Assembly: GCA_963929915.1 (NCBI GenBank)
Contig: CAWVJY010000002.1
Coordinates: 17,798-81,797 of the forward strand
Length of the DNA: 64,000 nt
Source of the DNA: Bacillota bacterium
Lineage (GTDB): Bacteria; Bacillota; Clostridia; TANB77; CAG-508
Reading direction: 5' to 3'
Made by a program: the position numbers and the translations under genes
Shown here: piece by piece, positions 9,037-61,603 of the stretch
Layout: every line of letters begins with the position of its first letter
Numbering within the stretch: the first letter of the stretch is position 1
The notes under the pieces: model-generated
The model's database searches: none
Told to the model about the DNA's origin: nothing
Seen by the model: only the letters and a program-made list of their open reading frames with translations

Positions 9037-9158
9037 TGTCAATGGGGACGGAGAATTTTGACAACTTAAGTCGTTGGGGACGGTTCTTAGTGACCCCATT
9101 TAGGGCCACTGAGAACCGTCCCTAGTAGCCCCTTTTAGGGTCACTAAGAACCGTCCCC
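9037..9158. repeat. GGGGACGG-family repeat cluster: one type A unit plus three type B units
   Basis: Type A unit TGTCAATGGGGACGGAGAATTTTGACAA at 9037-9064. Type B units: GGGGACGGTTCTTAGTGACCCC (9076-9097), AGGGCCACTGAGAACCGTCCC (9102-9122, inverted), AGGGTCACTAAGAACCGTCCCC (9137-9158, inverted). Confidence 0.88.
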
Positions 9159-10992
9159 AACATTCAACATTCTTAATGCGTTTAGTATTGCTATAATAGA
9201 AACTCCTACATCTGCAAATACTGCCCACCACATGCTAACTATTCCAATTGCAGTTAAAATAAGTATCAAAATTTTTACAATAATTGCAAAATAGATATTT
9301 TCTTTTACAATTCTCATTGTCTTTTTTGCAATTTGAATTGCTTTACTAATTTTGGATGGTTCATCTGTCATAATTACTACATCTGCTGCTTCTATTGCTG
9401 CATCTGAGCCAACTCCACCCATAGCAATTCCAATATCGGAAAGTGCTAATACCGGTGCATCATTAATCCCATCTCCTGCAAAGACTAATTTTGCGTTTTC
9501 TGTTTTACTTTTTAGTAGTTCTTCTACTTTTTCTACTTTTCCATCTGGTAAAAGTTCTGCATATACCTCATCCATTTTTAGTTCTTTTGCTACTGCTTCT
9601 GCTACTTGTTTTTTATCTCCGGTAAGCATAACTGTTTTTTGAATGTGATTTTTCTTTAGGTCTTCTATTGCTCGTTTTGCATCTTGTTTAATTTTATCTG
9701 CAATTACAATAGTTCCTGCAAATTTTCCATCTATAGCAACATATAATATGGTTCCTATATCTCCACTTTCTTGATAATTAACATCATATTGTTTCATTAA
9801 TTTATCATTGCCTACTAAAACTTGTTTGTTTTCTACTACTGCTTCTACTCCATGACCCGAAATTTCCTTTGCTTGAGAAACCAATTTGCTATCTATTTCT
9901 TTTTGATATGCTTTTTTCAAAGATAAAGAAATAGGATGATTAGAAAAACTTTCTGCATAGGTTGCCATTTTTAACAGTTCTTCTTTTGATATATCTACTG
10001 CCTCTATCTTTTGTACCTCAAAAACACCTTCTGTTAGTGTTCCTGTTTTATCAAATACTACGATTTCCGCTTGTGCCAAAGCTTCTAAATAATTACTACC
10101 CTTTACCAAAATTCCACATTTGGAAGCTCCTCCTATTCCTCCAAAAAATCCTAAAGGAATAGAAATAACTAATGCGCATGGGCAAGATACTACTAAAAAG
10201 CTAAGTGCCCTATAAATCCAATCTGTAAAATTAGCATTTGGTATTAGTATTGGTGGCAAAATTGCTAAAAAAATAGCGATTATTACCACAATTGGTGTAT
10301 AATATTTGGCAAATTTGGTAATAAAATTTTCTGATTTTGACTTTCTACTACTTGCATTTTCTACTAAATCTAATATTTTGCTAACAGTAGATTCTCCAAA
10401 TTCTTTTGTTACTTGAATAGAAATAACACCTTCTTGGTTAATACATCCGGCTTAGTATTTCATCTCCTACTTTTATACTTCTTGGTACAGATTCTCCTGT
10501 TAACGCAGAGGTATCAAGCATAGATTTTCCATCTAATACAATTCCATCTAAAGGAACTTTTTCACCTGGTTTTACTACAATGGTTTCTCCAATTTTTACT
10601 TCACTTGGATCTACTTTTTGTAATTTTCCATCTCTTTTTGCATTAGCAAAATCAGGTCTAATATTCATAACACTTGCAATCGATTTTCTAGATTTATCCA
10701 CTGCATAACTTTGGAATAATTCTCCTACTTGGTAAAATAACATAACTGCAACTGCTTCTGGAAGTTCTCCAATAGCAAATGCTCCAAGAGTTGCAATTGT
10801 CATTAAAAAGTTTTCGTCAAATACTTTTCCTCTAAAAATATTGCGAATGGCTTTCCAAACAATTGGAAAACCGACAATAATATAGCTTATAATATAAATT
10901 GCATTATTAATCCAAACATTTGCAAACCTAATAGTTAATGCTACTATAAATAATGATAAAGCAATTATTACCTGTATCACTCTTTTTTTCAT
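9144..10992 (-). pseudogene. cadA: heavy-metal (Cd/Zn/Co-type) P1B-type ATPase, frameshifted near 10290-10440
   Basis: Two ORFs (10438-10992 and 9144-10289) together give the TM/actuator part, CPC motif (VSCPCALV), DKTGTLT and GDGINDAP. The missing linker (INQEGVISIQVTKEFGESTVSKILDLVENASSRKSK...) is readable in another frame. Confidence 0.85.
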
Positions 10993-11925: not shown

Positions 11926-12916
11926 TTATGCACAAATTTCACTTAAGATTTCGTTGGTACTTTTATAATTAAACATAGCTCTTGGATAATTATTTATCCA
12001 ATCTTCTATTTTTTGTATAAATTCTTCTGATATTGGTGTTATATCAATTCCTTTTGGTATAAACCTTCTTATTAATCTATTAGCATTTTCATTACTTCCT
12101 CGTTCTCCTGAACGATATGGATGGGCATAATATATTTGTGTTCTAGCCTTTTTTCTTCGATTATCATAAGATTTCTCTAAAGCCTTCCAATTTCTAAATT
12201 CTCCACCATTATCAAAAGTTATAGTTTTAAATTTATTATAAAATATTTTTTTATATTTCTTTTCTATTATATCTAATGCTTTTGCTACATATTCTGCTTT
12301 CTTTCCGGGTAGCTTTACGATTATTTCTTCCCTTGTCTTTCTTTCAGTTAAAGTAAATAATACTGAACCTCTTTTTTTAGTTCCTATTACTAAATCTCCT
12401 TCCCAATGTCCATATATTTCTCTACTATTAGCTTCTTCTGGTCTATAATCTATACTCTTTTCTGCTGGTACTTTTTCGCATACTGTCTTTTCTTTATTTT
12501 TTTCCTTATATTCTTTGTTGTAAATCATATCGCTTGATTTTATATCATAAATATCTCCTGCATATATATTATTTCTAATTGTTCTTGCACACATTTTTGT
12601 TTTAAAATTCATTGTTTTTATCTCTTTTGCTATTACTTCTGGTGACTTTTTATCTTCTTTTATAGCTTTTTCAACATATTCTTTTAATTCATAATCATTA
12701 TCTATTTTTAACTTTGGTCCTTTTGCTTTTAAATAATATTCATATTTTTGCTGTGCTACATCTGCACTATATACCCATATTTCAATTAATTCCGTTGTTA
12801 GATTTTTTACTAATCCTCTTTTTATTTCATTCCTTATTGTCTTTTCTGTTCTATCTAAAAGTTCAGCTATTTCAAGTTTTGTACGTTTATCTCTATTCCA
12901 CCATCTTTCTATTGAT
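11926..12916 (-). pseudogene. IS30-family DDE transposase, C-terminal 330 codons (the N-terminal 26 codons lie at 14563-14642)
   Basis: HWEGDLV...TFDNGGEF...RGSNENANRLIRRFIPKG is the IS30 DDE signature. The frame stays open upstream of Met 12612 (SIERWWNRDKRTKLEIAELLDRTEKTIRNEIKRG) up to the insertion junction. Confidence 0.85.
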
Positions 12917-14562
12917 GGTCAATTGTAAAAATAAATTTTATTTAGAAAAAGTAACTTCTAGTTACCGAAAAAAAGCTATTTAAAAGCAAAAAAATGGTAA
13001 AAAGAGGTTGCTTTTTTTATGAATTTTGTGTAAAATGAAGATATAGACAAGAAAAAAGAGCGCAATTAAGCGAGTGAATTCAAATTAATTTTTTTGAGTG
13101 TAAGACTAATTTCTATTCACTTAATTTTGTGGACACGACAGTGCCAATATTAAATTAGCGTGGATACTTCTTGTAGATGTTTTTTTAATTATTTTAAGAG
13201 ATAAGGTTGTAGTGTGACCTTATCTTTTTCAATCTTTTGTATGTTTAGTTTATCTAAAGTAACTTTACCATAGAAAAATTCAAATGCTTCATATGGTGTT
13301 TTTCCACCTAAAGACTTTCTAGGTACAGAATTGATATGTGAAAACATTAAGTTAAGCTTGTCCTGAGTTAAATCTTTAAAGCTTTTTTTCTTAGACAGAA
13401 TATCACGTACAAATATATGATTATTCTCTACATGAGGCTTCTGGCTAGACATTTGAGCATCACAGTAAAAAATATTGCTTCTAATTTCTCCAGTCTCACA
13501 ATTAATTTCAAAAAGCTGTGGCTTAGCAAATTCGGATCCTCTGTCAGTAAGAAGTAAGCCAAATAACTTATGATACATATCATCTGATAAAATATCCTGA
13601 AAGTAATTAAGAGAATTGGACATTTCCTCAGCCGTTTTATGTTGTTTTAAAAGCCCTATCATAAAGCCTGTATTTTCAAATATGAAAGTCTGGATAAATG
13701 GACCGTTCTGATTATTGTAAACAGTATCCATTTCAGTTGTAGGCATATCAGAATTGTTCTTTACAAACTCTAGATAATCTTCATACTTTCTACCGGTGTA
13801 ATCAGCAGGTTCAGCTCTTTTCTTGAGTTTTTTCTTTCTAGATATTTTCCTTTTTACTTTTCTTCTTAGTTCAAGGTCAGTAACACCCCAATCTTTGAAT
13901 AAGCCCATTTCAATGTATGTATAAATTGTCTTTTCACATTGCTTGATTTCTTTGTGATTTTGTAAAATTGTATAAATTGATTGACCTTGTTTTATTAAAG
14001 GACAAATGACATGTGCTAATTCATAAAGTTCAGTTGTGTTTAAATTAACACCTTGTCTAGAATCTTTTAAAGTATATTCATAATTGCTTTGAGCAGTATT
14101 AGCGTAGTAGAAGTATTTGGCTTTATTACATTTTTTAATGTTAGGGCAACAATTACAAGCACCTATGAATCTGTCTCTTTGAAGACAAGGAACTTCCTCA
14201 AAATCAATACATTTGCTAACACAAACTTTGCATTCATTGAAATGTTTGCAAGCCCAAGGGGCTTCATCAATTTTAGAATATCTACGTTTTCTATTGTTTT
14301 TAATTTCCTTTCCGATAGTAGATTGACTTTTGTTAAGTTCTTTAGCAGTTTGGAATTTTCTTAATCTTTTGCAAATATTTTGTTCGATAACTTTCCTATC
14401 TTCTAAAGATAGATGCTTACCATCAAATTTCATAAATACCTTCTTTCTCAAGAAGTATCCACATTTATATTATACTAAATTGCATTTAATCTTACAATAA
14501 CTGTTAATTTACTATTAATTTGTATTTATTTTTTATTGAATAGAATTTACTTTTTTAATTAA
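12917..14562 (-). mobile_element. inner IS element (1646 bp) inserted into the outer IS30 transposase gene
   Basis: Flanked by a 15-bp direct duplication CATCTTTCTATTGAT (12902-12916 and 14563-14577). Imperfect terminal inverted repeats of about 25 bp (about 19/25 matches by eye). Carries its own transposase. Confidence 0.8.
13189..14451 (-). CDS. DDE transposase, divergent IS30-like, with a Cys-rich insert
   Basis: N-terminal HTH (HLSLEDRKVIEQ...STIGKEIKNN). Catalytic-type motifs MDTV, TDRGSEF and PHVENNH, followed by SVPRKSLGGKTPYE as in IS30-family enzymes. Confidence 0.75.
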   Translation of the reverse strand: MRKKVFMKFDGKHLSLEDRKVIEQNICKRLRKFQTAKELNKSQSTIGKEIKNNRKRRYSKIDEAPWACKHFNECKVCVSKCIDFEEVPCLQRDRFIGACNCCPNIKKCNKAKYFYYANTAQSNYEYTLKDSRQGVNLNTTELYELAHVICPLIKQGQSIYTILQNHKEIKQCEKTIYTYIEMGLFKDWGVTDLELRRKVKRKISRKKKLKKRAEPADYTGRKYEDYLEFVKNNSDMPTTEMDTVYNNQNGPFIQTFIFENTGFMIGLLKQHKTAEEMSNSLNYFQDILSDDMYHKLFGLLLTDRGSEFAKPQLFEINCETGEIRSNIFYCDAQMSSQKPHVENNHIFVRDILSKKKSFKDLTQDKLNLMFSHINSVPRKSLGGKTPYEAFEFFYGKVTLDKLNIQKIEKDKVTLQPYLLK

Positions 14563-15901: not shown

Positions 15902-16735
15902 TTGATAGTTTTGAGCGATATAGACAAGAAAAATGTTTCATTCGAAGAAATAAAGCATATCGATGAAAATGGTGTTGAATTTTGGTATGCTAGAGAGCTG
16001 CAAAATGTTTTGGAATATAAAGAATGGAGAAAATTTGAAAACGTAATAGATAAAGCAAAAGAGGCATGTAAGAATAGTGATATTAGTGAGTTTGAACATT
16101 TTGTCGACGTCGACAAGTTGTCGAAACGTGCTAATAATGCAGAAGTCAAGATTAAAGACTACAAATTAACACGTTATGCTTGTTATTTAATAGCCCAAAA
16201 TGGAGATAGTAGAAAAAGAGTAATTGCGCTTGCTCAAACATATTTTGCAGTTCAAACTAGAAAACAAGAAATCAACGAAAAAGAGTATATTTTATTAACA
16301 GAAGATGAGAAAAGATTTTATCAAAGAGATTTGACAAGAAAAAGTAATTATTCTTTAAATCAAGCTGCTAAAAATGCAGGAGTTAAAAATTTTGACAAAT
16401 TTCATAATAGCGGATATAAAGGTTTGTATAATGGAGAAACTGCTGATGATATTGCAAAACGAAAAGGATTAAGATATAGAGAAGACATTTTAGATAATAT
16501 GGGTAGTGATGAACTTATTGCCAATTTATTTAGAATTTCTCAAACAGAACAAAAATTAAAAAAAGATAATATACAAACTGAAAAAGAAGCAAATAAAACA
16601 CATTATAATATTGGGAAAAATATAAGAGAAGTAATTGCTAAAAATGGTGGAACTATGCCAGAAGACTTACCTACACCTAATAAAAGCCTAAAACAACTAG
16701 AAAAAGAAAATAGTAAAAGTTTGAAGAAAAGATAG
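15902..16735 (+). CDS. DNA damage-inducible protein D (DinD)-like
   Basis: FEEIKHIDENGVEFWYARELQNVLEYKEWRKFENVIDKAKEAC...YKLTRYACYLIAQNGDSRK...IALAQTYFAVQTRKQE matches the DinD family pattern as I recall it. The exact start codon is uncertain. Confidence 0.65.
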   Translation: MIVLSDIDKKNVSFEEIKHIDENGVEFWYARELQNVLEYKEWRKFENVIDKAKEACKNSDISEFEHFVDVDKLSKRANNAEVKIKDYKLTRYACYLIAQNGDSRKRVIALAQTYFAVQTRKQEINEKEYILLTEDEKRFYQRDLTRKSNYSLNQAAKNAGVKNFDKFHNSGYKGLYNGETADDIAKRKGLRYREDILDNMGSDELIANLFRISQTEQKLKKDNIQTEKEANKTHYNIGKNIREVIAKNGGTMPEDLPTPNKSLKQLEKENSKSLKKR

Positions 16736-16787
16736 AATATTAATAGTTGCACTATAATAAGAGGGTATCCTAGAATAGGAACCCTCT

Positions 16788-19097
16788 TTATTTTGCTTTT
16801 ACATCATATTCCATTACATGAACTTGAATAATTTCATGTTGGTAATCATCTATAATATGGTTGTATTGAAAAAATTCTTTCTTTGTTTCTTGTAAAGTAC
16901 AATTATTTAAATCAAGAAGTATTTCATCTGATACATCCATTCCCTTTGGCAATGTTTGATTAAAATTTTCAAAGAAAATAATATTAGAATAATATAACAT
17001 TGGCATTTTTTCTGGCACGTTTAAGCGATACAAATAAATTTCTTTTTCTCCTAAATTTTGTTCTATTGCCTTTTTTTGGTCTAGATGAAATAGTTGTAAG
17101 TTTTCTAATGAAATCGGTTTAGTTTTGGCAAGATAAATAGATAATTCATAAGGTGTGCTAATTTTGCAAAATGCTTCTTTTAGTAGTTTTAAATAATTTC
17201 TTAAAGTATCAATAAAGGTATCTAATTCTGTTTGCAAGGTAATATTTAAAATGTTATATTTATCTTTTTCTACCTCTCTATGTTTTTGATTATTTAGCGT
17301 TTTTATTTTGGTTTTATCTTCTGACATGCTTCCGAAAATGTCAAAATCTTTTGCCTGAATTACTTCTATATTATTCTCATATTCTTGTTTTAGTTGTTCT
17401 AATTCTTGCTGTAATATTTGTTTTTGCTCTTTGCTTAAATCTTTACTTTGGGTACTATTTAAAATTTGGCTAGCAGTAAGTACTTGTTTTATAGCAAAAA
17501 TAGCATCTGTTTCGTTTTTCGAAAATTTTCTTCTTTGTAATTCATCTACTTGTTTTCCTAATTCTTCTATATCTGTTTCATAATCAAAACTTTTTCCTAT
17601 TTTTTCTTTTTCTTTATTTTCCTCTTCTTCTCCTTCGTTTAAGCTAGGGAGCTCATCTTTGTTTGTGAATTTCCAGAATTCAAAAATACTTTTTTTATGG
17701 AGGTCTATTTCATTTAAATAGATATTGGCATTTTTTATTTTTCTTTCTAGATTTACTTTTTTTAATTCTAATGCCTTTTGGTCTAGTTCTAAATTTTTTA
17801 TCATTTTCTTTCTACCATCTAGTTTTGTACACACTTCTATTAAATCTTCTATGGTATAAAGTTTTTTATTTTCTTCTAGAATTGCTTCTTGCTTTTTAGG
17901 TTCTTCTTTTGGAACTTCTTTTTTATTTTTAGAACTATTTACAGGCTTTAATTCTTTTTTACGGTTAGAAAAGTAATACTTTATTTTTCCAAAAAAAGTT
18001 TTTTTACATTCCAAGAAAGTGGCAATTTGCCTTTGTTTGCTCAAATATTCTTCATTTTGTTTTTCTACTATTTGTTTTAAATCTTGTAATTTTTCTTGTG
18101 CCTCTTTTAATTTTCTTTCTTCTAAAGTAACTGCTATTTTCTTTTGATTCACTTGGTTTTGAATAAATTCTGTTAGTGTGTTATAGTAAATTGCTTTTTC
18201 CTCTTTTTCTGTTACATAATAAAAATCCATTCCACCTTTTTCATCTATTTTTATTTTAAACTGATAATCTTCTGGAAGGCCTGTTGCCAAAATAAATAAG
18301 GCTTTTAGTAGTTTATAAAACTCTTGTGCTTCTTCTTTGTTAGTAAATGTGACAACATAGTCACTTTCTATTTTTTCATAGACTTTTGCCTTTCCCACAA
18401 TGGTAAGTGACATTTTCTCTTTTTGATCATATACTTCATAAATGTTAGGCCATTCTTTGGTAAAATACCAAATATAGTTTTCTAAATCTGTAATTTGGCT
18501 TTTCACTAGATAATTTCCAGAATATTCTAAATGTGTAATAGGAACATAAATGAGCTCCTTCTTTCTAGCTTTTTTAGCCTCTATTTGTTTTTTTAAGAGA
18601 TAAAATAGAGCAACATTATTGGTTTCATTAATAGGTACTAACATAAAATATTGGTTTGCCACATCTGAATAGTAGATTTGCCAAATATAGTTATGTTCAT
18701 ATTTTATTTCATAAGGAATTTGGTTTTGTAACTGTTCTTGCTCTTTTTCAATTACTTTTAAATCTTCTAAATGCATATCATTTAGCAATTTTAGAAAAGC
18801 ATCAAAATATTCCAAATTTTCCTCTGTTTTAGAATCTAAAAATTGACTAATTGGTATTGCCAATTTATATTTTTCACTTAAATTGGTTAGCCTATCTGTT
18901 GGTGTTAACAAAATTTGAATTTGTGTAACATCTACATATTGGTATACTTTATAGCTCATATCATCATAAGCTTTAGAAGGTCTAAAAGAAAAGGGTGTAA
19001 ATTCTTTTAGAAATTTTGGTACCCTTTCCAAATTAAGTCCTATATATTGTAATTTTTCCTTTACTTTTTCTTTATCTTCTGCAATTTTTTCTAGCAT
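16788..19097 (-). CDS. large hypothetical protein (769 aa) with central coiled-coil regions
   Basis: Long uninterrupted ORF. AGGAGG RBS before ATG 19097 (MLEKIAEDKEK). No domain recognised. Confidence 0.7.
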   Translation of the reverse strand: MLEKIAEDKEKVKEKLQYIGLNLERVPKFLKEFTPFSFRPSKAYDDMSYKVYQYVDVTQIQILLTPTDRLTNLSEKYKLAIPISQFLDSKTEENLEYFDAFLKLLNDMHLEDLKVIEKEQEQLQNQIPYEIKYEHNYIWQIYYSDVANQYFMLVPINETNNVALFYLLKKQIEAKKARKKELIYVPITHLEYSGNYLVKSQITDLENYIWYFTKEWPNIYEVYDQKEKMSLTIVGKAKVYEKIESDYVVTFTNKEEAQEFYKLLKALFILATGLPEDYQFKIKIDEKGGMDFYYVTEKEEKAIYYNTLTEFIQNQVNQKKIAVTLEERKLKEAQEKLQDLKQIVEKQNEEYLSKQRQIATFLECKKTFFGKIKYYFSNRKKELKPVNSSKNKKEVPKEEPKKQEAILEENKKLYTIEDLIEVCTKLDGRKKMIKNLELDQKALELKKVNLERKIKNANIYLNEIDLHKKSIFEFWKFTNKDELPSLNEGEEEENKEKEKIGKSFDYETDIEELGKQVDELQRRKFSKNETDAIFAIKQVLTASQILNSTQSKDLSKEQKQILQQELEQLKQEYENNIEVIQAKDFDIFGSMSEDKTKIKTLNNQKHREVEKDKYNILNITLQTELDTFIDTLRNYLKLLKEAFCKISTPYELSIYLAKTKPISLENLQLFHLDQKKAIEQNLGEKEIYLYRLNVPEKMPMLYYSNIIFFENFNQTLPKGMDVSDEILLDLNNCTLQETKKEFFQYNHIIDDYQHEIIQVHVMEYDVKAK

Positions 19098-19241
19098 GTT
19101 TTCCTCCTGTTTGTTTTTCTGGTACAAGTATATCACAAAGAAAATAAGGTTACAATTATTTTAGGAGATTTTTTAAACTTTGTTCATATTCTTTTTGACA
19201 TCTTGATAAGATATTAAGCATTTGATTGTTTTTCATTACTT

Positions 19242-22761: not shown

Positions 22762-23047
22762 AAGTTTTTCTCCCATTCTTAATAACATAAAAGTAATACA
22801 TTCAGCATAATCTATACTCGATTTTCTTTTTATAATATAAAACCAAACATTTCATAACTTACTAATATTACTTTTATTGATACATTTTTACCTACTTACC
22901 ATATCTTTGTATTAATTTCATCATGTACCTTATCATTACTGTATATAATGCCAATTAATATGATTTTTTGGAAGGAATAAATCTCTTTAATACTAATACT
23001 ATCACTGAATATATTCCGTAAAATATATTATCTGGAAATTGTATTAG

Positions 23048-23187
23048 AGTGTGGGTCTGGTGGAGATGTTGGAATTGTTGTCGTTGTTCGGATTGTTGTT
23101 GTTGCGGTTGGAAGCTGGATTGTTAGAGCCGGAATTGTTGTAATTGCCACCACGATTAACACGATTGTTGGTGTTGTTGGCCTTTTG
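23048..23187 (-). repeat. DGR template repeat (TR)
   Basis: 140 nt, gap-free alignment to 25349-25488. The sense (minus) strand is rich in AAC/AAT codons. All 20 differences from the VR are at sense-strand adenines of this copy. Non-coding location 100 nt downstream of the RT stop. Confidence 0.93.
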
Positions 23188-23288: not shown

Positions 23289-24329
23289 TTACTCTATATA
23301 AAATATTTTTTTCGTCAAATTATAGATATTGGCATAATGAATATACCCCATATGTCCTGCTAAATACTTTTTAGCTTCTTTGCTACTTATTTTTCCACTT
23401 TTTATATTGTATTTTAATTCTTTTACTTTTTTCTTAAGTTTTCTTTTTCCCTTATCTCGTATTTTTAGCCTATATTCATTAATTTTATATCCACAAAAAT
23501 TCACTCCTTGTTTGCTTTTAAATATTTGTGTTTTTTCATTAAGTTCTAGTTCTAAATGGAATTTTAAGAACTTCTTAATATTTTTTAAATATGTTTTAGC
23601 TTCTTTTTTTGTTTTTGCAAATAATACCATATCATCGAGATAACGAAAGTAATACTTCACTTTCAAACTATGCTTTATATATTGATCCAATTCATTTAAA
23701 TAGATATTAGCAAAAGTTTGAGATGTATAATTTCCTATTGGTAAACCTTTTCTTTTACCTAATTGGTTTTCTAATTCTTCTTTTGTGCAGTTTGAATAAA
23801 TAATTTCTTGTAATAACCATAATAGCTTTTTATCTGTTATTTTTCTTTTTAATATTTGAAACAAAATATCTTTATCAATATGATCAAAATATTTTCTAAT
23901 ATCCATTTTTAAAATATAATAATTATCCCAAATTCTTTTACAATGTTTCATTGTGTTTTGTACATCAATGCATGCTTTATGCATTCCTCTATTTTTAATG
24001 CAAGCATAGGTATGAAATATAAAGCTTTTTTCGAAATACTGTTTTAAAAAATTATCTACTACCCATCTATGTACAATTCTATCTATATATCTGCTTTTTT
24101 CTATTCTTCTTAATTTTTGTTCTGTTACATAAAAGGTAGTATATCCACCATGCCTATAACTTCCTGTTTTTAATTGTTCATAAAGCCACATAATATATTC
24201 TTCTTGTTTTAAGTTAAATAAGATAATTTCTTTTCTATAGCCTTTACCTTTTCTACTTAACTTATGGGCTTGCATTAGATTTTCATAATTCAGCTTTTTG
24301 TCATATTCATTTTTTATTTTTCTTGCCAT
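23289..24329 (-). CDS. DGR reverse transcriptase
   Basis: RT motifs RKYFDHID, LPIGNYTSQTFANIYL (DGR-type [LIV]GxxxSQ signature) and YLDDMVLF (YxDD). 346 aa with no maturase or endonuclease extension. Confidence 0.92.
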   Translation of the reverse strand: MARKIKNEYDKKLNYENLMQAHKLSRKGKGYRKEIILFNLKQEEYIMWLYEQLKTGSYRHGGYTTFYVTEQKLRRIEKSRYIDRIVHRWVVDNFLKQYFEKSFIFHTYACIKNRGMHKACIDVQNTMKHCKRIWDNYYILKMDIRKYFDHIDKDILFQILKRKITDKKLLWLLQEIIYSNCTKEELENQLGKRKGLPIGNYTSQTFANIYLNELDQYIKHSLKVKYYFRYLDDMVLFAKTKKEAKTYLKNIKKFLKFHLELELNEKTQIFKSKQGVNFCGYKINEYRLKIRDKGKRKLKKKVKELKYNIKSGKISSKEAKKYLAGHMGYIHYANIYNLTKKIFYIE

Positions 24330-24666
24330 AATATTTAATAAGTCCTCCTACTAGTTTTCCTATTTCAGAAATGTATGACATAGCTATATTAAATTTTTTC
24401 TCATCTATCCATCTATTTTTTACCATCAGTCTTAAGAATATCCTTTGGCAATTTAGCTCTACATCTATTTTGTCTATATAATATAGCCTTTTGCTTTCAT
24501 CTATTTTTACAATATACATTACATTTTTTAGCATTTCATACATGGATACCTTATATTCATTACCTATACTAAATTTTTCTGTTCTTGGTAATTTTATTAG
24601 TAGATTTAGCATGTATTCTATATATGTTTCTACTTTTGGTATTAATAATAATCCTTGTTCTTCCAT
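24307..24666 (-). CDS. avd: DGR accessory variability determinant (Avd-like four-helix-bundle protein)
   Basis: 119-aa basic helical protein. LPRTEKFSIGNEY and C-terminal EIGKLVGGLIKY resemble bAvd / 23S rRNA intervening-sequence-protein family motifs. Overlaps the RT start by 23 nt. Confidence 0.8.
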   Translation of the reverse strand: MEEQGLLLIPKVETYIEYMLNLLIKLPRTEKFSIGNEYKVSMYEMLKNVMYIVKIDESKRLYYIDKIDVELNCQRIFLRLMVKNRWIDEKKFNIAMSYISEIGKLVGGLIKYYGKKNKK

Positions 24667-24689: not shown

Positions 24690-25106
24690 TTATAAATTTT
24701 TTATTTTTGCTATTTTTTCGTCTATTAAGTTATGATTTTGTTTAACATTCCAAGAACATTTTGCACAATTAAAACATTTTCTACTTTCTGCTACTGGTGA
24801 TAATATAATTCTTTTTAAAAGTTCATATTTCCTTTCTCTATTTTCTTTTTTGGGATAATATTCATAAATTGCTACAGATATATTTTTTGCTATTATTTTT
24901 CTTATAAATTTATCAATTTTTGCAACTGGTATTGCACACTTACATATATTTTTAGAAATACATATATTATTTAATCCAAATTGTTCTCGTAGTAATACTG
25001 CATCTTTTCCTACTCCATAAAAGAAAATTCCGCAACGTATTAATACCAAATAGTCAATATTTTCTGGCTTATTTTGTATTTCTTCCACAATTTTTAAAAA
25101 CTTCAT
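24690..25106 (-). CDS. small MutS-domain-I-like DGR accessory protein (MSL-type), 138 aa
   Basis: From ATG 25106 (RBS GGAGAA): YLVLIRCGIFFYGVGKDAVLLREQFGLN...CAIPVAKIDKFIRKIIAKNISVAIYE parallels the MutS mismatch-binding domain I pattern (l.f.r.GdFYE.f..DA......L.l.......aGvP.......l..Li..G..VAi.eQ). C-terminal CxxC..C cluster. Confidence 0.5.
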   Translation of the reverse strand: MKFLKIVEEIQNKPENIDYLVLIRCGIFFYGVGKDAVLLREQFGLNNICISKNICKCAIPVAKIDKFIRKIIAKNISVAIYEYYPKKENRERKYELLKRIILSPVAESRKCFNCAKCSWNVKQNHNLIDEKIAKIKNL

Positions 25107-25246
25107 GATTTTCTCCTTTCCTTGTGTTGTATATATTTTTTGACAAAAAAATATATACCACGCAAGTGGTATACCACGCAAGTTAATACTTTCTTGTGGC
25201 ATTTTGCCTTTGGGCAAATGCCAACAAGTAAAGTATTGATTACGTG

Positions 25247-25267
25247 GTACTCCCACATGGGGAGTAC
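25247..25267 (-). other. GC-rich hairpin about 70 nt downstream of the VR / target stop codon
   Basis: GTACTCCC-ACAT-GGGGAGTAC. A stem-loop downstream of the VR is a known feature of DGR target loci. Confidence 0.5.
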
Positions 25268-25335: not shown

Positions 25336-26598
25336 TTACATTATGTAAAGTGTGGGTCTGGTGGAGATGTCGGAATTGTTGTCGTAGAGCGGATGGTTGT
25401 GGCTGCGGTAGGAAGCTGGAGAGTAAGAGCCGGAACTGTAGTAACTGCCACCACGAATAACACGACTGTAGGTGTTGAAGGCCTCTTGGGTCCATTCCGC
25501 ACAATTTCCTGCAAAATCATAAATATTATTTGCTTGCCAACTTTCTTTATATCCTGCTGTTTGTTTTGTTCCTGCTCCTTCTTCTGTATTATCACTATAA
25601 TTTCCCCAACTTGTGGAATTTTCTATATCATATCCTGCTCCTGATAACCAATTACATACTTCATCCCATTGGTTTACATAAATCATTGTTGTTTTTGCTA
25701 TTATTTCACTTTCTTGTTTACCTGAGTTATTAATTATTTTTGTACATGCCGCTTTTAAATTATACCAATTTTGATCTGTTATTACTGTTCCGCCTTTTGC
25801 TACTGTTGGGCTATTTATATCTCCTGTTAGTTCATATCTTCCTATATAAAATCCTCCATATTTTTCTATACTATCATGAATTTCTTGGTACTCATTTACC
25901 ATATCTTGTGCAAATTCTTGCACACTACTTGCTCCATTTATGATACTATAATATTGACTATCTGTATCATATTTCGTTACTAAATCTGGCTCTCTATAAC
26001 CTGTTGTTCCTGGTTTGTCCATTGTATAAATACTAGATTTACTGTATATACTTGTGGTTACTCCTGTTCCTCCTGATAAAGCTACTGTTTCTTCTGTATA
26101 CATTTGTGCTAGCCTTTCTGCACTTACTGGTATCCATACAAATTCATTATTGGTTCCATCTTGTTTAATTACAAATCCTTCTTCTACTTTTTGTTCTTCT
26201 TCTACTGTGGATGCTGTAAATCCATTTGGTATAGGTACATTTACTGATGGTTCATCTTTTGATGGGAATGGTGTTACTTTGCTTAAATCCCAACTTTCTG
26301 GTACTTCTGGACCTTCTGGTGTAACTCCTCCACCTGTTCCAGTTTCATTATTCATTATACTATTTAATTCATTTACTAAATTTTGAATTTCTTGTTGTTC
26401 ATTAGCTATTGCACCATCCCAGGTGTTTTTTGCTTCTTGGGCTGTTCTTATAATTCCATCTTCTCCTAGCAACATATTTATGGTTACTCCTGATAAAATC
26501 AAAAGAATTACTATGGTTACTACTAAGGCTATTAGAGTTATACCTTTTTCATTTTTGCCTTTTCTATATTTTATGCCTTCTTTTTCTCTTCTTTGCAT
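25336..26598 (-). CDS. DGR target protein: prepilin-like N-terminus plus FGE-sulfatase/C-type-lectin-fold C-terminal domain
   Basis: Basic leader then KG/ITLIALVVTIVILLILSGV (type IV prepilin-like cleavage and hydrophobic segment). C-terminal GFYIGRYELT...WDEVCNWL...NCAEWTQE...RVIRGGSY pattern of the FGE/SUMF1-type CLec fold. The VR occupies the last 47 codons. Confidence 0.85.
   Translation of the reverse strand: MQRREKEGIKYRKGKNEKGITLIALVVTIVILLILSGVTINMLLGEDGIIRTAQEAKNTWDGAIANEQQEIQNLVNELNSIMNNETGTGGGVTPEGPEVPESWDLSKVTPFPSKDEPSVNVPIPNGFTASTVEEEQKVEEGFVIKQDGTNNEFVWIPVSAERLAQMYTEETVALSGGTGVTTSIYSKSSIYTMDKPGTTGYREPDLVTKYDTDSQYYSIINGASSVQEFAQDMVNEYQEIHDSIEKYGGFYIGRYELTGDINSPTVAKGGTVITDQNWYNLKAACTKIINNSGKQESEIIAKTTMIYVNQWDEVCNWLSGAGYDIENSTSWGNYSDNTEEGAGTKQTAGYKESWQANNIYDFAGNCAEWTQEAFNTYSRVIRGGSYYSSGSYSPASYRSHNHPLYDNNSDISTRPTLYIM
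25349..25488 (-). repeat. DGR variable repeat (VR)
   Basis: Last 47 codons of the target gene (QEAFNTYSRVIRGGSYYSSGSYSPASYRSHNHPLYDNNSDISTRPTL). 120/140 identical to the TR, with mismatches only opposite TR adenines. The 3'-terminal 22 nt are identical to the TR (IMH-like). Confidence 0.93.
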
Positions 26599-56485: not shown

Positions 56486-57188
56486 TCATTTTTTAGTCTT
56501 TTTTAACATTTTTTGTTTTTCTAAAATGATTTCCTCTACATTTTCTTTAACTTGTCCAATTGTTAAATGAGTGGTGTCTACTACTATTGCATCTTCAGCT
56601 ATTTTTAAGGCTCCTACTGGTTTATGCATATCATTATAATCTCTTTTTTTCATGTCTTCTAAAGTTTCTTCATAGGTTGCTACAATGCCTTTTTCTTGGT
56701 TTTCTAAAAATCTTCTTTTGGCTCTTTCTTCTACATCTGCATCTAAATAGATTTTAACATCTGCATTTGGAAATACTACTGTGGTAATATCTCTTCCTTC
56801 CATAATAACATCCTGATTTTCTGCCATTTTTCTTTGCAAGTCTACCATAATTTCACGCACTTTTCCGGATAGAAGATACAGGAGATACAAAATTACTTAC
56901 TTCTTTGGTTCTTATTTGCCTACTTACATCTTCTCCATTTAAATATACTGTAATTTCTCCATTTATATTTTGCATTTGAATATTAATATTTTTGGCAATT
57001 TCTATAATTTTTTCTTTTTCTTCTGTAGATTCAATAGAATTAATTCCTTTTCTTAAACATTCTAATGCTACACATCGATACATTGCTCCTGTGTCTATGT
57101 TAAGTAGATTTAATTCCTGTGCTATTAATTTTGTAATGGTTCCTTTTCCGGTTCCTGCTGGTCCATCTATTGCTACAATAAACGACAT
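56486..57188 (-). CDS. cmk: cytidylate kinase, frameshift near 56853-56890
   Basis: MSFIVAIDGPAGTGKGTITKLIA P-loop, DTGAMYR. The second half VREIMVDLQRKMAENQDVIMEGRDI is in the overlapping ORF. Confidence 0.88.
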
Positions 57189-57198
57189 TTTTCTCCTC

Positions 57199-58167
57199 CT
57201 ATTCATTTTTTCCTTTACTTTGGTTTTCTTGTTTTTCTGACTTTTCTTCTAAAGTTTGCACATTTTCTTGTTCTTGCTGTATATTTTTTTCTTCTATTTT
57301 TTGCAATTCTTCTGGCTCTAGCATATGTATTCCTTTTGCTACAATGGTTACTTGTTGCACATTCATGGTTGTTAATTTTTCTATTTCTTTTTTTATTTTT
57401 TGTTTGAACTCCCTTAAAGTTTCCAAAATGTTAAACCCATAATTAATAGAAACCTCCATATAAATGTTAGGTCCTTCTGGTGTACTCTCTACTCTAGTTC
57501 TCATAACTTTGTAAATGGCATCTGTTTTCTTTGCTAAATATTCTGCAATTTGGCGAAATACTGTATCGGAAATAGTAAAATTTCCTAAATAACTAAAGGT
57601 TGGTCTTATAATAGATTTTTCTGCTATATATGGGTCGTTTCCTTTTCCTTTTAGTTTAAAAATTTGTAATGGGTCTAAAATATAGCCTGAAAAGTCTTTT
57701 TTGATTTCAAAGGTTGGTACAGGAATAACATGTTTTCCTTGTGTAGTACGAATTCTTTTGGCTGTTTCCATTTCTGTTTCTGTTGCGACATCTTGAATAT
57801 AAATTCTTTTTTCTGGTTTGGAAAGTCCCAAATTTTCTGCAATTTTATCTACCATTCCATCTGAAGTACCCAGAATTAAAATAGATTCTGGTTTTAGTCT
57901 TCTAATTGCCTTTTTCATTTCGTTTCTATCTTTTTCATTTACAAAGATTGCTTTTTTTACGGTTTCTACTTTGGTAGGTGCTTTTTTAGCAGAAGTTCCT
58001 GCTACTACATTATTATCATGAATTAACAATCCATCATCAATAATATAGTGGATTTTGTTTTCATTTGCTACCATTTGGGCACGGTAACTTTTCCCTGTTC
58101 CAGATGGTCCTACAAAGGCATATACTTTTATTTCTTCATTAGAAATTAAATTATTAAAAAGTTGCAA
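57199..58167 (-). CDS. P-loop NTPase fused to an Asp23/Gls24-like C-terminal domain
   Basis: Walker A GPSGTGKS. The C-terminal ISDTVFRQIAEYLAKKTDAIYKV...VESTPEGPNIYMEVSINYGFNI resembles Asp23-family proteins. Confidence 0.55.
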   Translation of the reverse strand: MQLFNNLISNEEIKVYAFVGPSGTGKSYRAQMVANENKIHYIIDDGLLIHDNNVVAGTSAKKAPTKVETVKKAIFVNEKDRNEMKKAIRRLKPESILILGTSDGMVDKIAENLGLSKPEKRIYIQDVATETEMETAKRIRTTQGKHVIPVPTFEIKKDFSGYILDPLQIFKLKGKGNDPYIAEKSIIRPTFSYLGNFTISDTVFRQIAEYLAKKTDAIYKVMRTRVESTPEGPNIYMEVSINYGFNILETLREFKQKIKKEIEKLTTMNVQQVTIVAKGIHMLEPEELQKIEEKNIQQEQENVQTLEEKSEKQENQSKGKNE

Positions 58168-58183: not shown

Positions 58184-59801
58184 CTACTCTTTTTCTACAG
58201 TAATAATTTGATATACAAATCCTCTATATTTTGGTCTAATTTTCTTTCTTGCTATTTCTTTTAAATCATATTTTTCTGCCATTTCATTGTACCACTCTAA
58301 TCCTTCATGGTCAATTAAAATCATTCTGCCATGATAATCATCTAAAAAATCTTCCTCAAAAGTAATTTTTAGTGGTGGACTATAGTTTTCAAAAGGTGTT
58401 ACATCATGGTTTGGATCTATGTGATATAAATACCAATTATATTCTGGCATCTGTACAAAAATATTACTTGCATGGAAATAATCCTGATATAAAATCATAT
58501 CTCCTTCTTTATATTGTTCTTGAATATAGCGAACTTCTTCTCCATTAGTAGAATCATAATTTTCTTCTATAATAATACTATTATTATATATACTCAAACC
58601 TAGAATAATCATTACTACAATACTAGAAATAATTTTCTGGTGTTTGGTGGAATTGCTAAATAAGAAATAGGCAAATGGGAAAAGAATAATTCCACTTGTA
58701 ATTAACATATAACGATAATACATAATTGGTCTTATTAGCACAGTAACAATTAACATGGAAAAGAAAAGAATAAAATGTACTAATAAGCAATACCAAATAA
58801 TAGTTAAATTCTTTTTTTGTTTTTTATGGCAAATAATCTGGTAAATTAAGTAGCTGTACATAATAATTGTAAAAATGGTACTAATAGTAACACTTAATCT
58901 TCCATTAAATTGTACTCCTAAAGGTGCTGCTATAGAATCTGTCCAGTTAAATGGAATCCAATAAGACTGACTTACTTTTCCGTGCTTGTGTTAGAAATAC
59001 AAATAGCCATGGTAAATAGCCTATAATTTCTACAATTGCTGCAAATAAAAATCTAAAAATATATTTCTTTTTTAACTTTTTCTTTTGTATTAGAAAATCT
59101 TCATAAGAAGTATAGTATGGTATTTTTTCTTCATACATTTTTTGTGAAAATAAAATATGTAGTAATAACAAGCCATTCATGATGGCGACTGCTACTAGTC
59201 CATAGTAATGGCAATGGGCAGCGCATAAGCTAGCTATAGCAAACAAAAGCCAATTTCTCTTTTTTTCTTGTTTGATACTTCTGTAAGCATATATGCCAGA
59301 TAAAGTAGTAAATAGCATAGTCCAACTATACATTCTAATTTCCATTCCGTACATTGCCATAAATGGAAGGAATAGCATAAAAAAGGAAAAGGCTAACCCT
59401 ACTTTTGGTCCAAAATCTTTACGAATATGAGTAAATCCTAAAATTCCTATTAAAATCCCTGCTGATACAGAAAATAGCCTAGCTACTAAAATGGAGTTTC
59501 CAAAAATACAATTAACTGCTTTTAATAATAAATAATATAAAACAGGATGAACATCATTGCTATCAATACGAATAATGTCACTAATATCATGGGAAACTAG
59601 AGCTATGGTATAACTTTCATCAAACCATACCTCTGTGTGAAATGCTCCCAATAGAATAAAGATGCTACCTAATATGATAATTAAAATATGGAACCATTTT
59701 GATACTATAATATTTTCTATTTTACTTTTGTTATTACTTTGTTGTTTTTGTGTAGCTTCTTCTTTTTGCTTTCTTTTTGCTAGCTTTTCTTCTTTCTTCA
59801 T
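58184..59801 (-). CDS. PMT_2/GT39-like (ArnT-type) membrane glycosyltransferase, split near 58861-58947
   Basis: WFDESYT...SNDVHPVLYY motif, polytopic membrane, C-terminal soluble domain. Two ORFs in different frames. Confidence 0.65.
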
Positions 59802-59925: not shown

Positions 59926-61603
59926 CTACTTTTTCTCTACTAAACTAATATAATATTGATAGCCATGATATTCTGTGGAAAAGTGGTCTTGCTTAATTAA
60001 TTTAAGGTTTTCTCCATAACGTTCTGACATTTCTCTATAAATGTTATAATTTCCTCCATCAATAACCCAAATTCTGCCATAATAGTCATCTAAACCCTCT
60101 AATGTTTTTATGGTTTTCATATTTTTACCAAAAGCTTGGTAAGCAGGTTCTACATTCCAATAATCTCCATCAAAAAAGCAGTTTGCAATATCTGGTAATT
60201 GCATACTAAGTACAAATCCATTACCTGTATTGCCAAATAAAAGAAGGTCATCTTGTTGTAAATCTTGTTTCACATATTCTAAAGGCTTGCTATTGGTTGG
60301 TCCATAATTCATGGTACTTACATTGTAATTTACAAAAATTGCTGTAATTAAGGTAAGAATACAAATAAGAATGGTTAATATTTTCTTGCCACCTTTTATC
60401 ATAAAAAATGCCATAAAGAATATGAAGATTCCTGTTAAATTTAAGAAATATCTAGCATATAAAATAGGTACTTTTAAAGAAATAATGAAAATACAAATAA
60501 CCACAATGGCATATACACCAATGGCAAATAATCCTGGTTTGTTACTTTTTCTATGTTTTACTATTGCATAAATCATAGTGCCAATTGCATAGGCAAGTAA
60601 AATAATACTAAAAGTAAGTGCTAACTCTTGTTTTAAAAATATAGTATCTAGATTTCCTGTAAATTGAAAAGTTAAAATTTGTAGCCATACTTCTATAGAA
60701 GGAGTTTGTATCCAAAATCCTTTTGATACAGTTTGGAATTGTGCTAATAAATAAATGAGCCATGGTAAATATAAAGCTATTTGTATAATAGCAGAAGCAA
60801 TAAAACATTTTAAGTTTAAAATATTGAATTTGCTTTTTTCTGTTATGGTTTTGTTTTCAGATTGTTTTTTATGTATTTTTATTTGATTTATAATGAAATA
60901 GATAAATAATGCTAAATTAATAATTCCTGCAGTTGCTAGACCATAATAATGGGTATAACTAGCTGTTAAGCTAAAAACGGCAAATAAAACCCAATTTTTA
61001 TAAAATCCCTTTGGCTTAGTTATTTTCTTTTTCTCTTTTTCTGTTTGATTATTTTGAGCTTTTGTTTTTTCTTCTTCTGTTAGTTTTTCTTGTGGTTGAA
61101 GGCTATTTTTATAAATTCTATAAGCATAAATTGCCATTAAGCTTACAAGTAACATTGCCCAAGTGTACATTCTAATTTCTCCTGAATATACACACATAAT
61201 TGGCAAAAAAAACCACGAAAAAGGAAAAAAGTAAGCCTACTTTTTCTCCAAAATCTTTTCTAATATGAGTATAGCCCAATATTCCTAATATAGCAATTGG
61301 AATCATGGATAATATTCTATAAATATAAATATTAGGTCCAAATAATAAATAAACAATATGTAAAATCCAATAATATAGCACAGGATGAACATCATTGCTT
61401 CCTATTGACCAAATATCAGCAAAGCTCTTATTGGCCATTCCAACAGAATAGCTTTCATCAAACCATAAGTTTTGGTGAAAGATAGGAATACTAATAAAAA
61501 TAATACCTAATAAAATAATAGCAATATGAATATATTTTAAATTTTTTTCTTGCTTTAAATTATGTTCTTTATTTGGTATTTCTGTTACTTTACCCTTTTT
61601 CAT
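59926..61603 (-). CDS. PMT_2/GT39-like membrane glycosyltransferase paralog, split near 61172-61206
   Basis: WFDESYS...SNDVHPVLYY motif. Same architecture as 58184-59801. Two overlapping ORFs in different frames. Confidence 0.65.

Follow-up and report, generated by a model that had tools for sequence, protein, structure and literature searches.

Among the variable proteins of diversity-generating retroelements (DGRs), Mtd is the tip of a phage tail fibre and TvpA is an outer-surface lipoprotein. A glutamate at position +5 of the mature chain (Glu5) is the hallmark of assembling type IV pilins, and in archaea class III signals also occur on non-pilin proteins, as in the sugar-binding proteins of Sulfolobus and the Bas "bindosome". 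In Gram-positive bacteria, modular type IV pilins are experimentally established for Streptococcus sanguinis, where PilB combines a pilin module with vWA and PilC combines one with a lectin (PMC8179133, PMC9934059), and where these proteins polymerize via the pilin module (PMC8179133). Membrane-associated DGR targets with a C-type lectin (CLec) fold are also known (PMC8144416), as are DGR-diversified pilus adhesins, described for the type V pili of Bacteroides (bioRxiv 10.1101/2024.11.15.621889), and a survey lists a "GspG-type pilin" among rare domains bearing a variable repeat, without further comment (PMC11661182). Here we analyse a stretch of 64,000 nucleotides from a Bacillota bacterium (assembly GCA_963929915.1, contig CAWVJY010000002.1, positions 17,798 to 81,797; the window), in which a DGR target gene at 25336–26598 encodes a protein of 420 residues. 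Going by sequence homology, residues 1–84 of this protein reproduce in full a short type IV pilin of non-canonical type, with Ala in place of Glu at +5, and the C-terminal domain, which the DGR diversifies, has an FGE/CLec fold. All coordinates given below for the target and the DGR cassette refer to the minus strand of the window.

An earlier note on this DNA had considered the display of a DGR-diversified domain on a pilus-like fibre to be experimentally uncharacterized. That statement survives in part. In the literature searches made, neither a fusion of a DGR target with a type IV pilin module nor the Ala5 pilin family seen here was described; DGR combined with prepilin gave nothing, DGR combined with "type IV pil" gave incidental co-mentions (judged mostly from titles and abstracts), and the motif string ITLIALV was not found. 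Against it stand the modular type IV pilins and the Bacteroides type V adhesins mentioned above.

The target gene, supported by its open reading frame (ORF), by more than 7,300 homologues at E ≤ 0.001 and by an AlphaFold2 model, is almost certainly that of the variable protein of a chromosomal DGR. Its variable repeat (VR; 25346–25488, 143 nt) pairs with a template repeat (TR; 23045–23187) recognized as a direct repeat and by alignment with the VR; the two are 85% identical, the TR contains 55 adenines, and 20 of the 21 differences affect TR adenines, while the last is a C>T change at the 3′ edge. The VR spans codons 371–418, or about 47.7 codons, in agreement with the earlier note, which had assigned the last 47 codons to it. 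Among 13 close orthologues, 33–48% of VR residues differ, compared with 7–24% elsewhere in the protein. These changes are confined to adenine-encoded positions, where unrelated residues are found, and they leave a constant scaffold, QEAxxTxxRVxRGGxYxxSGSxxPASxR....P.....S..STRPTLY. From this pattern the DGR appears to be active in nature, and adenine-directed mutagenic retrohoming would rewrite the last 48 residues of the FGE/CLec domain. The same target family is located beside a reverse transcriptase in loci L004, L051 and L072, and in L068 only the accessory genes Avd and MSL (MutS domain I-like) accompany it. DGR-free paralogues are common, for example in L002 and as a triple tandem in L043, and have ordinary chromosomal contexts.

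In the encoded protein, a basic leader ending in Gly19 (residues 1–19, 26542–26598) precedes the pilin module (residues 20–84, 26347–26541), which is connected through a flexible linker rich in Gly, Thr, Pro and Glu (residues 85–107, 26278–26346) to a globular domain of 313 residues with the FGE/CLec fold (residues 108–420, 25339–26277). The AlphaFold2 model was built from 49 family members, with a mean predicted local distance difference test score (pLDDT) of 82.9 and a predicted template-modelling score of 0.75. It contains a hydrophobic helix (residues 22–44), a G-E-D-G break and an amphipathic helix of low confidence (residues 49–84). The pLDDT drops below 50 at residues 81–94 and is still low to about residue 100, in keeping with the linker, for which no secondary structure is predicted, and reaches about 90 or more over most of residues 108–420. 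A Foldseek search against the PDB matches this domain with probability 1.0 to the DGR variable proteins TvpA (2y3c), TaqVP (5vf4) and Mtd (1yu0-4), and further to other FGE-fold proteins (PorK, PvdO, EgtB and OvoA), while the family profile matches SUMF2 (1y4j) at E = 0.005. Because the Pfam FGE-sulfatase model is sub-threshold on the target (15 bits, cut-off 23.3), membership of the CLec/FGE fold is assigned from structure, and the predicted domain with its Foldseek matches agrees with the fold proposed earlier for the C-terminus.

The target starts MQRREKEGIKYRKGKNEKG/ITLIALVVTIVILLILSGV, where the slash marks the putative cleavage after Gly19 at the end of the leader (...KGKNEKG); in longer form the start reads MQRREKEGIKYRKGKNEKG-ITLIALVVTIVILLILSGVTINMLLGEDGIIRTAQEAKN. 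A short basic leader that ends in Gly and passes directly into about 20 hydrophobic residues is present, and in the PROSITE-style pattern [KRHEQSTAG]-G-[FYLIVM]-[ST]-[LT]-[LIVP]-E the target fits all positions except the E. The class III-like start that the earlier note had described (basic leader, KG, hydrophobic run, Ala at +5) is upheld by the sequence, by its conservation in the family and by homology to pilins. The best PDB sequence matches to the N-terminus are weak and are to Geobacter PilA-N (7tgg, E = 0.016–0.059; 9egp).

The same N-terminus is widespread. Among the 120 best homologues, every full-length member has the motif (K/R/Q)G-ITL(I/V)(A/S/T)LV(V/I)TI(V/I)(V/I)L(L/I)ILA.(V/I)(T/S)I...(L/F)G..G(I/L)(I/F)..A, and it is present both in the best homologues and in loci with adjacent DGR genes, so that homologous DGR targets do share it, a point on which the earlier note had asked for a survey. 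A 55-residue N-terminal profile retrieves 31,992 representatives of clusters at 50% identity, 20,976 of them at E ≤ 1e-10, in proteins whose lengths extend from about 60 residues to over 700. In the best 150 profile matches, Gly occupies −1 in 148 of 149, Ile +1 in 146 of 149 and Ala +5 in 146 of 149. Neither Pfam nor NCBIfam has a model specific to this module; of 76 related modular proteins, 41 are matched by PF07963 (N_methyl) at E ≤ 0.01. The C-termini of these 76 proteins, scanned in species-representative genomes, include BspA leucine-rich repeats (LRR; 13), FGE-sulfatase (12), LRR_8 (8), DUF285 (5) and GLUG (4), along with DUF6273, RCC1, Big_2, fn3, PKD and dockerin; the C-termini joined to the GITL(I/V)ALV module are adhesin-type domains. 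The carriers are metagenome-assembled genomes (MAGs) labelled "uncultured Clostridia bacterium" and "Clostridium sp.", with a GC content of 25–33% and originating from human, Hadza, rabbit, chicken and mouse guts. Several motif loci occur per MAG, and tandem arrays were found. At L083:8727-10255 and L084:6731-8259 (MAGs GCA_948560265.1 and GCA_948862705.1), the genes for a 394-aa FGE-like protein, an 84-aa motif protein and a thioredoxin come in that order, which recalls the proximity of the target to thioredoxin in the window. The module was also seen in eight IMG/VR contigs (L168–L175), among them two proteins of 400 aa and three ORFs of only 32–42 codons.

A link to pili is provided by an operon in related gut Clostridia. 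Small proteins of 141–168 aa in L056, L064, L066 and L067 start with M..(K/N)(Q/N/E)(K/R)G-ITLIALVITIIVLLILAGVSIAMLTGENGILT.A and are encoded inside a conserved gene string, which begins with a 539-aa protein and two single-pass membrane proteins, continues with one to three pilins and an A24-like protein of about 270 aa, and ends with two small pilin-like proteins and PilB-, PilT- and PilC-like genes. In the two small pilin-like proteins the +5 residue is Asp in one and Ser, Thr or Ala in the other. The PilB/GspE-type ATPase matches T2SSE with 345 bits and TIGR02538 with 423 bits, the PilT-family ATPase matches TIGR01420 with 316.8 bits against a cut-off of 319.1, and the GspF/PilC platform protein matches T2SSF with 101 bits; the operon ATPases also match the NCBIfam model of the bindosome BasE ATPase weakly. 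For the three upstream genes there are no Pfam or NCBIfam matches, and pilM/N/O is a label given by their position alone; at E ≤ 1e-10, at least 6,885 relatives of the 539-aa protein were counted. A Com pseudopilus was considered and then rejected in view of the PilT-family ATPase and the three extra upstream genes, which point to a type IVa-like pilus instead.

The operon is present in 8 of 80 genome loci and in two further loci reached via a 71-aa protein, P0439. A search of 82 loci with the T2SSE Walker A pattern GPTGSGK[ST] gave nothing; the pattern was too strict, as operons are present there. In addition, 80 metagenome loci were fetched with the A24-like protein alone, of which 68 could be evaluated. 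A strict-motif ORF lies immediately upstream of the A24-like gene in 60 of these 68, and three of the remaining eight have a looser KGVSLIAL/KGISLIKL variant; the 539-aa gene and PilB, PilT and PilC are carried by all 25 loci longer than 12 kb. Counted on motif-selected ORFs (71 unique), the operon pilins have leaders of 5–13 aa, mostly 6–7, with Gly at −1 in all and Ala at +5 in 69. Upstream of the peptidase, a looser pattern that allows any residue at +5 did not reveal a Glu5 pilin, nor was a canonical Glu5 pilin found by regular expression in the 1.2 Mb of genome loci (82 loci). Of the 71 pilins, 22 are only 68–88 aa long and the others 124–199 aa. The short ones are essentially helices (L007:9995-10213, L019:9995-10225, L036:9995-10228 and L085:10001-10216), and some operons instead have one to three tandem pilins of 124–199 aa. 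The L064 pilin passes the gathering score of PF07963 (22.4, threshold 21.2).

Residues 14–84 of the target match the operon pilin P0439 at E = 1.8e-11 in a search of 5.8 billion sequences. The P0439 gene is situated between the upstream genes and those for A24_N_bact, two T2SSE proteins and T2SSF. Compared with the short operon pilins, the target is 47–50% identical over 66–73 columns, approximately the whole pilin length, and the alignment takes in the second, amphipathic helix (..AQ.A...W..A..NE...). In the NCBI pipeline, fragments from the N-terminus of such proteins already receive the name "type II secretion system protein". The homology makes it very probable that the target N-terminus is pilin-derived. 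With a short pilin, a linker and a diversified lectin domain, the protein is a modular pilin by the definition of Raynaud et al. (PMC8179133); since it lacks Glu5 and stays below the thresholds of the standard hidden Markov models (HMMs), it is not filed as a canonical type IV pilin. We conclude that the target is a homologue of a lineage-specific, non-canonical pilin family and probably works like a modular pilin. Some other short proteins were set aside as candidates: P0441, P0437, P0432 and P0448, the nearest to the target N-terminus, proved on contig look-up to be fragments of frameshifted paralogues or unlinked genes, and P0409–P0433 look like fragments from their sequences.

The A24-like protein of the operon has a strong match to A24_N_bact of about 103 bits (for example L064:10515-11333, L056:10975-11823 and L085:10291-11103), and a profile comparison with Escherichia coli GspO gave no alignment to it. 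Inspection by eye shows the motif of the first catalytic Asp, G-I-D-K-E, and, at the C-terminus, P-I-G-F-Y-L. The first Asp is kept in 63 of 68 sequences.

Our preferred explanation, to which we would give about an even chance, is that the target is a DGR-diversified modular pilin whose variable lectin is displayed on a retractile type IV pilus. The N-terminal helix would insert in the membrane with the N-terminus inside, and the leader would be cut off after Gly19. The type IV pilus machinery would then extract the pilin module and polymerize the target with the major pilin, probably placing it at the fibre tip or sparsely along the fibre, such that the variable ligand-binding face would be exposed outside the Gram-positive wall, and retraction driven by PilT could exert a pull on bound ligands. 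The chances of the incorporation step by itself, as far as the comparisons above allow it to be judged, seem to us level or marginally lower, and processing by an A24-type enzyme appears somewhat better than an even prospect.

A number of findings weigh against incorporation into a pilus, and several of these fit equally with a pilin-derived membrane tether, where the protein, perhaps cut by the same peptidase, would remain unpolymerized, either anchored by its helix or in a short assembly of bindosome type, with helix and linker as the stalk that holds the diversified lectin at the cell surface. This alternative is a substantial one, although we would not call it probable. In the target, Gly19 is followed by I-T-L-I-A, which places Ala24 at +5 where assembling pilins have Glu5. 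The checks against prepilin N-methylation models that the earlier note had suggested turned out negative (PF07963 gives 19.3 bits, below the gathering score of 21.2, and TIGR02532 gives no match at E ≤ 10 with either the full protein or the first 60 aa); used alone, however, these two results would have led to a wrong dismissal of the link to pilins. The AlphaFold2 model has no globular α/β pilin head on the N-terminal helix, its pLDDT is just 40–66 across residues 41–100, and taken alone the model, in which a transmembrane helix and a second helix of low confidence lead through a disordered linker to the outer domain, looks like a tethered ectodomain. Structure prediction therefore bears out the CLec/FGE ectodomain and not a pilin head; the lineage's own short pilins are helices only. 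Further, the large motif-bearing proteins are scattered, very numerous and unlinked to the pilus operon, which a general anchoring signal would fit too: a spread over about 32,000 clusters, with many adhesin types and several members per genome, suits a general sorting or anchoring signal better than it suits minor pilins. The prevailing view is that most DGR targets of cells are binders anchored in the membrane (PMC8144416). The archaeal sugar-binding proteins with class III signals are the precedent that a tether would follow. For the processing step, a Peptidase_A24 domain was undetected in eight of eight A24-like proteins even at E ≤ 10, and the column aligned to the GxGD Asp is not conserved among the 68 sequences (D15, G14, S11, E11, Q6, N5), a nearby Glu in F-T-(G/Y)-E being kept in 50 of 68, so that cleavage is plausible but not assured. 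In the genome itself, the sampled 74 kb (the window and 10 kb past its left end) showed no pilus genes, and the operon is missing at two sites where relatives carry it, corresponding to those in L152 and L066. What speaks against a mere tether is that the whole short-pilin module of about 65 residues, including the amphipathic helix, is kept at 47–50% identity. Such conservation past the cleavage site and the anchor argues that the module still performs the role of a pilin. A stalk of about 85 residues would also be short for spanning the Gram-positive wall. Taken together, the pilus-like interpretation offered earlier holds for the pilin-derived N-terminus, given the homology to operon pilins, and is weakened by the absence of Glu5, the failure of the standard models and the lack of a pilin head.

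Two other explanations leave the relation to pilins aside, and we consider both to be very improbable, the second even more so. If the N-terminus were a generic signal-anchor or Sec signal, its likeness to a prepilin would be convergent or compositional; the sub-threshold and absent prepilin models would be expected, as would the best NCBIfam match to the N-terminus, a weak one to the single-pass membrane protein FliL. A signal of this kind does not account for near-invariant residues (G at −1, I/T/L at +1 to +3, A at +5 and T at +9) in tens of thousands of clusters, for a match to an operon pilin that reaches into the soluble helix, or for the motif heading the gene beside an A24-like peptidase in most of the independently fetched loci, and we regard it as largely refuted already. 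The DGR and its target could alternatively be the remnant of a prophage, with a receptor-binding protein whose N-terminus is a phage-specific membrane or virion anchor. Many gut Firmicutes DGRs are phage-borne (PMC8144416), a Bro-N gene and IS30-like transposases lie 7–13 kb away, and the motif does occur in viral contigs. These, however, are only 8 of 2.9 million, compared with at least 397 confirmed hits in species-representative genomes; the cassette is flanked by thrS and thioredoxin/thioredoxin-reductase genes with no nearby phage structural genes, and the ordinary chromosomal contexts of the DGR-free paralogues point in the same direction.

ORF reading and phmmer/HMM searches with the operon proteins found no homologue of a prepilin peptidase, PilB, PilT or PilC in the 64-kb window, which confirms the earlier statement that a prepilin peptidase and a pilus-assembly ATPase are not visible there. 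In L152 the operon is directly upstream of a homologue of the window gene at 57199–58167, and in L066 it is upstream of rpsF-ssb, for which the corresponding locus is L179; the sample of L179 also contains a contig whose TrpRS is exactly that of the window. L179 has the same IS30-like element as the window next to rpsF-ssb (L179:4993-6140), and a second, frameshifted pilin-FGE paralogue with an N-terminus almost identical to that of the target (L179:7842-9227), which suggests several such genes per genome. Housekeeping proteins encoded on L179, or in the window and its immediate surroundings, share 72–87% identity with those flanking the operon in L066, L088 and L152, placing the organism of the window in the same broad lineage as the operon carriers.

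On the minus strand the cassette is ordered target, MSL, Avd, reverse transcriptase and TR, with a Shine-Dalgarno-like AGGAG about 12 nt 5′ of the target ATG. The MSL gene (24690–25106, 138 aa) matches Pfam MutS_I with 35.6 bits and the Avd gene (24307–24666, 119 aa) matches Pfam bAvd with 61.4 bits, above the cut-off of 40, and NCBIfam DivGenRetAVD with 72.4 bits, below the cut-off of 80. The reverse transcriptase gene (23289–24329, 346 aa; Pfam RVT_1, 80.1 bits) resembles those of group II introns and retrons, and the TR is located just downstream of it. The combination of MSL with avd has been described as a DGR architecture (PMC5758913). MSL genes form a little-studied accessory class, here between target and avd, and homologues accompany related DGRs in L004, L068 and L072. 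The 230-nt spacer 3′ of the VR holds two hairpins (25190–25267): GTACTCCC/GGGAGTAC, with an 8-bp stem and a 5-nt loop about 80 nt downstream of the VR (25247–25267), and an imperfect palindrome of 19 nt. Both may be homing-associated structures or terminators.

Farther from the cassette, IS30-like transposase genes are found at 11926–12612 and 13189–14451 (minus strand), one of them apparently truncated, and between these insertion sequence elements and thrS there is a Bro-N domain gene with a 782-aa Lys/Glu-rich ORF (15902–19136) that may be mobile-element remnants. Some genes of the window are apparently split into two ORFs, namely those for a heavy-metal P-type ATPase, a cytidylate kinase and two large membrane proteins (minus strand, 9144–10992, 56486–57206, 58184–59801 and 59926–61603). 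The two membrane proteins look glycosyltransferase-like, as judged without a domain search. The split in the P-type ATPase recurs in the L176 and L177 assemblies, which makes a genuine pseudogene possible instead of an error of assembly.

Loading of the protein on pili, if it occurs, would add Gram-positive type IV pili to the phage tail fibres, lipoproteins and type V pili of Bacteroides on which DGRs diversify adhesins, and would be a plausible route for a variable lectin past a thick cell wall. More tentatively, a lineage-wide, retractile type IV pilus with Ala at +5 may be a universal scaffold for interchangeable adhesin modules (LRR, DUF285, GLUG and lectin-like) in uncultured, low-GC gut Clostridia, built from pilins that are often helix-only and about 70 aa long and served by an atypical A24-family enzyme, with one pilus-borne lectin being rewritten by a DGR in some members; we think this possible and would not yet rely on it. 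Were it true, a Gram-positive commensal would possess a programmable pilus adhesin. Apart from these readings, the N-terminal module defines a very large and essentially unannotated family in uncultured Clostridia of human and animal guts, most of which would escape modular-pilin surveys that rely on IPR012902. The consistent Ala at +5 and the A24-like enzyme without a conserved second Asp bear on the assumption that Glu5 and leader cleavage are essential for type IV filaments. The loss of the second Asp in the enzyme coincides with the loss of Glu5 in the pilins.

As in the archaeal bindosome, a pilin-type signal without Glu5 may serve here as a general device for placing diverse binders at the surface. 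The bindosome hosts are archaea, the signals are not homologous in sequence, and the operon of the gut Clostridia includes a PilT-family retraction ATPase, as do bacterial type IVa pili. Geobacter PilA-N ("geopilin domain 1", about 60 residues) is likewise a short, truncated pilin that is mostly helix, but it keeps Glu5, pairs with a separate PilA-C and has no fused adhesin module. The Bacteroides type V system resembles the locus in that gut bacteria use a DGR to vary the ligand-binding part of an adhesin associated with a pilus, an association we infer for the target. The type V pili, on the other hand, are formed from lipoprotein precursors by strand exchange in diderm hosts, and the carrier module is not homologous to that of the target.

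With Mtd of Bordetella phage BPP-1, TvpA of Treponema denticola and TaqVP of Thermus aquaticus, the target shares a C-terminal VR on an FGE/CLec fold, and the DGRs have adenine-specific substitutions from TR to VR and Avd in common; unlike the target, these three proteins have no pilin module, and an MSL gene is present here in addition (architecture D of PMC5758913). The modular pilins of S. sanguinis differ from the target in several respects: the pilin here has about 65 residues, is helix-only and carries Ala at +5, the FGE/CLec module is rewritten by a DGR, and the gene belongs to a family of about 32,000 clusters, with several per genome, and lies far from any pilus operon. Common to both are a Gram-positive host, a class III-type pilin module and, beyond a linker, a ligand-binding module with no specific tie to pili, an operon (here that of relatives) with PilB, PilT, PilC and a prepilin peptidase, and the idea of an adhesin displayed on a pilus.

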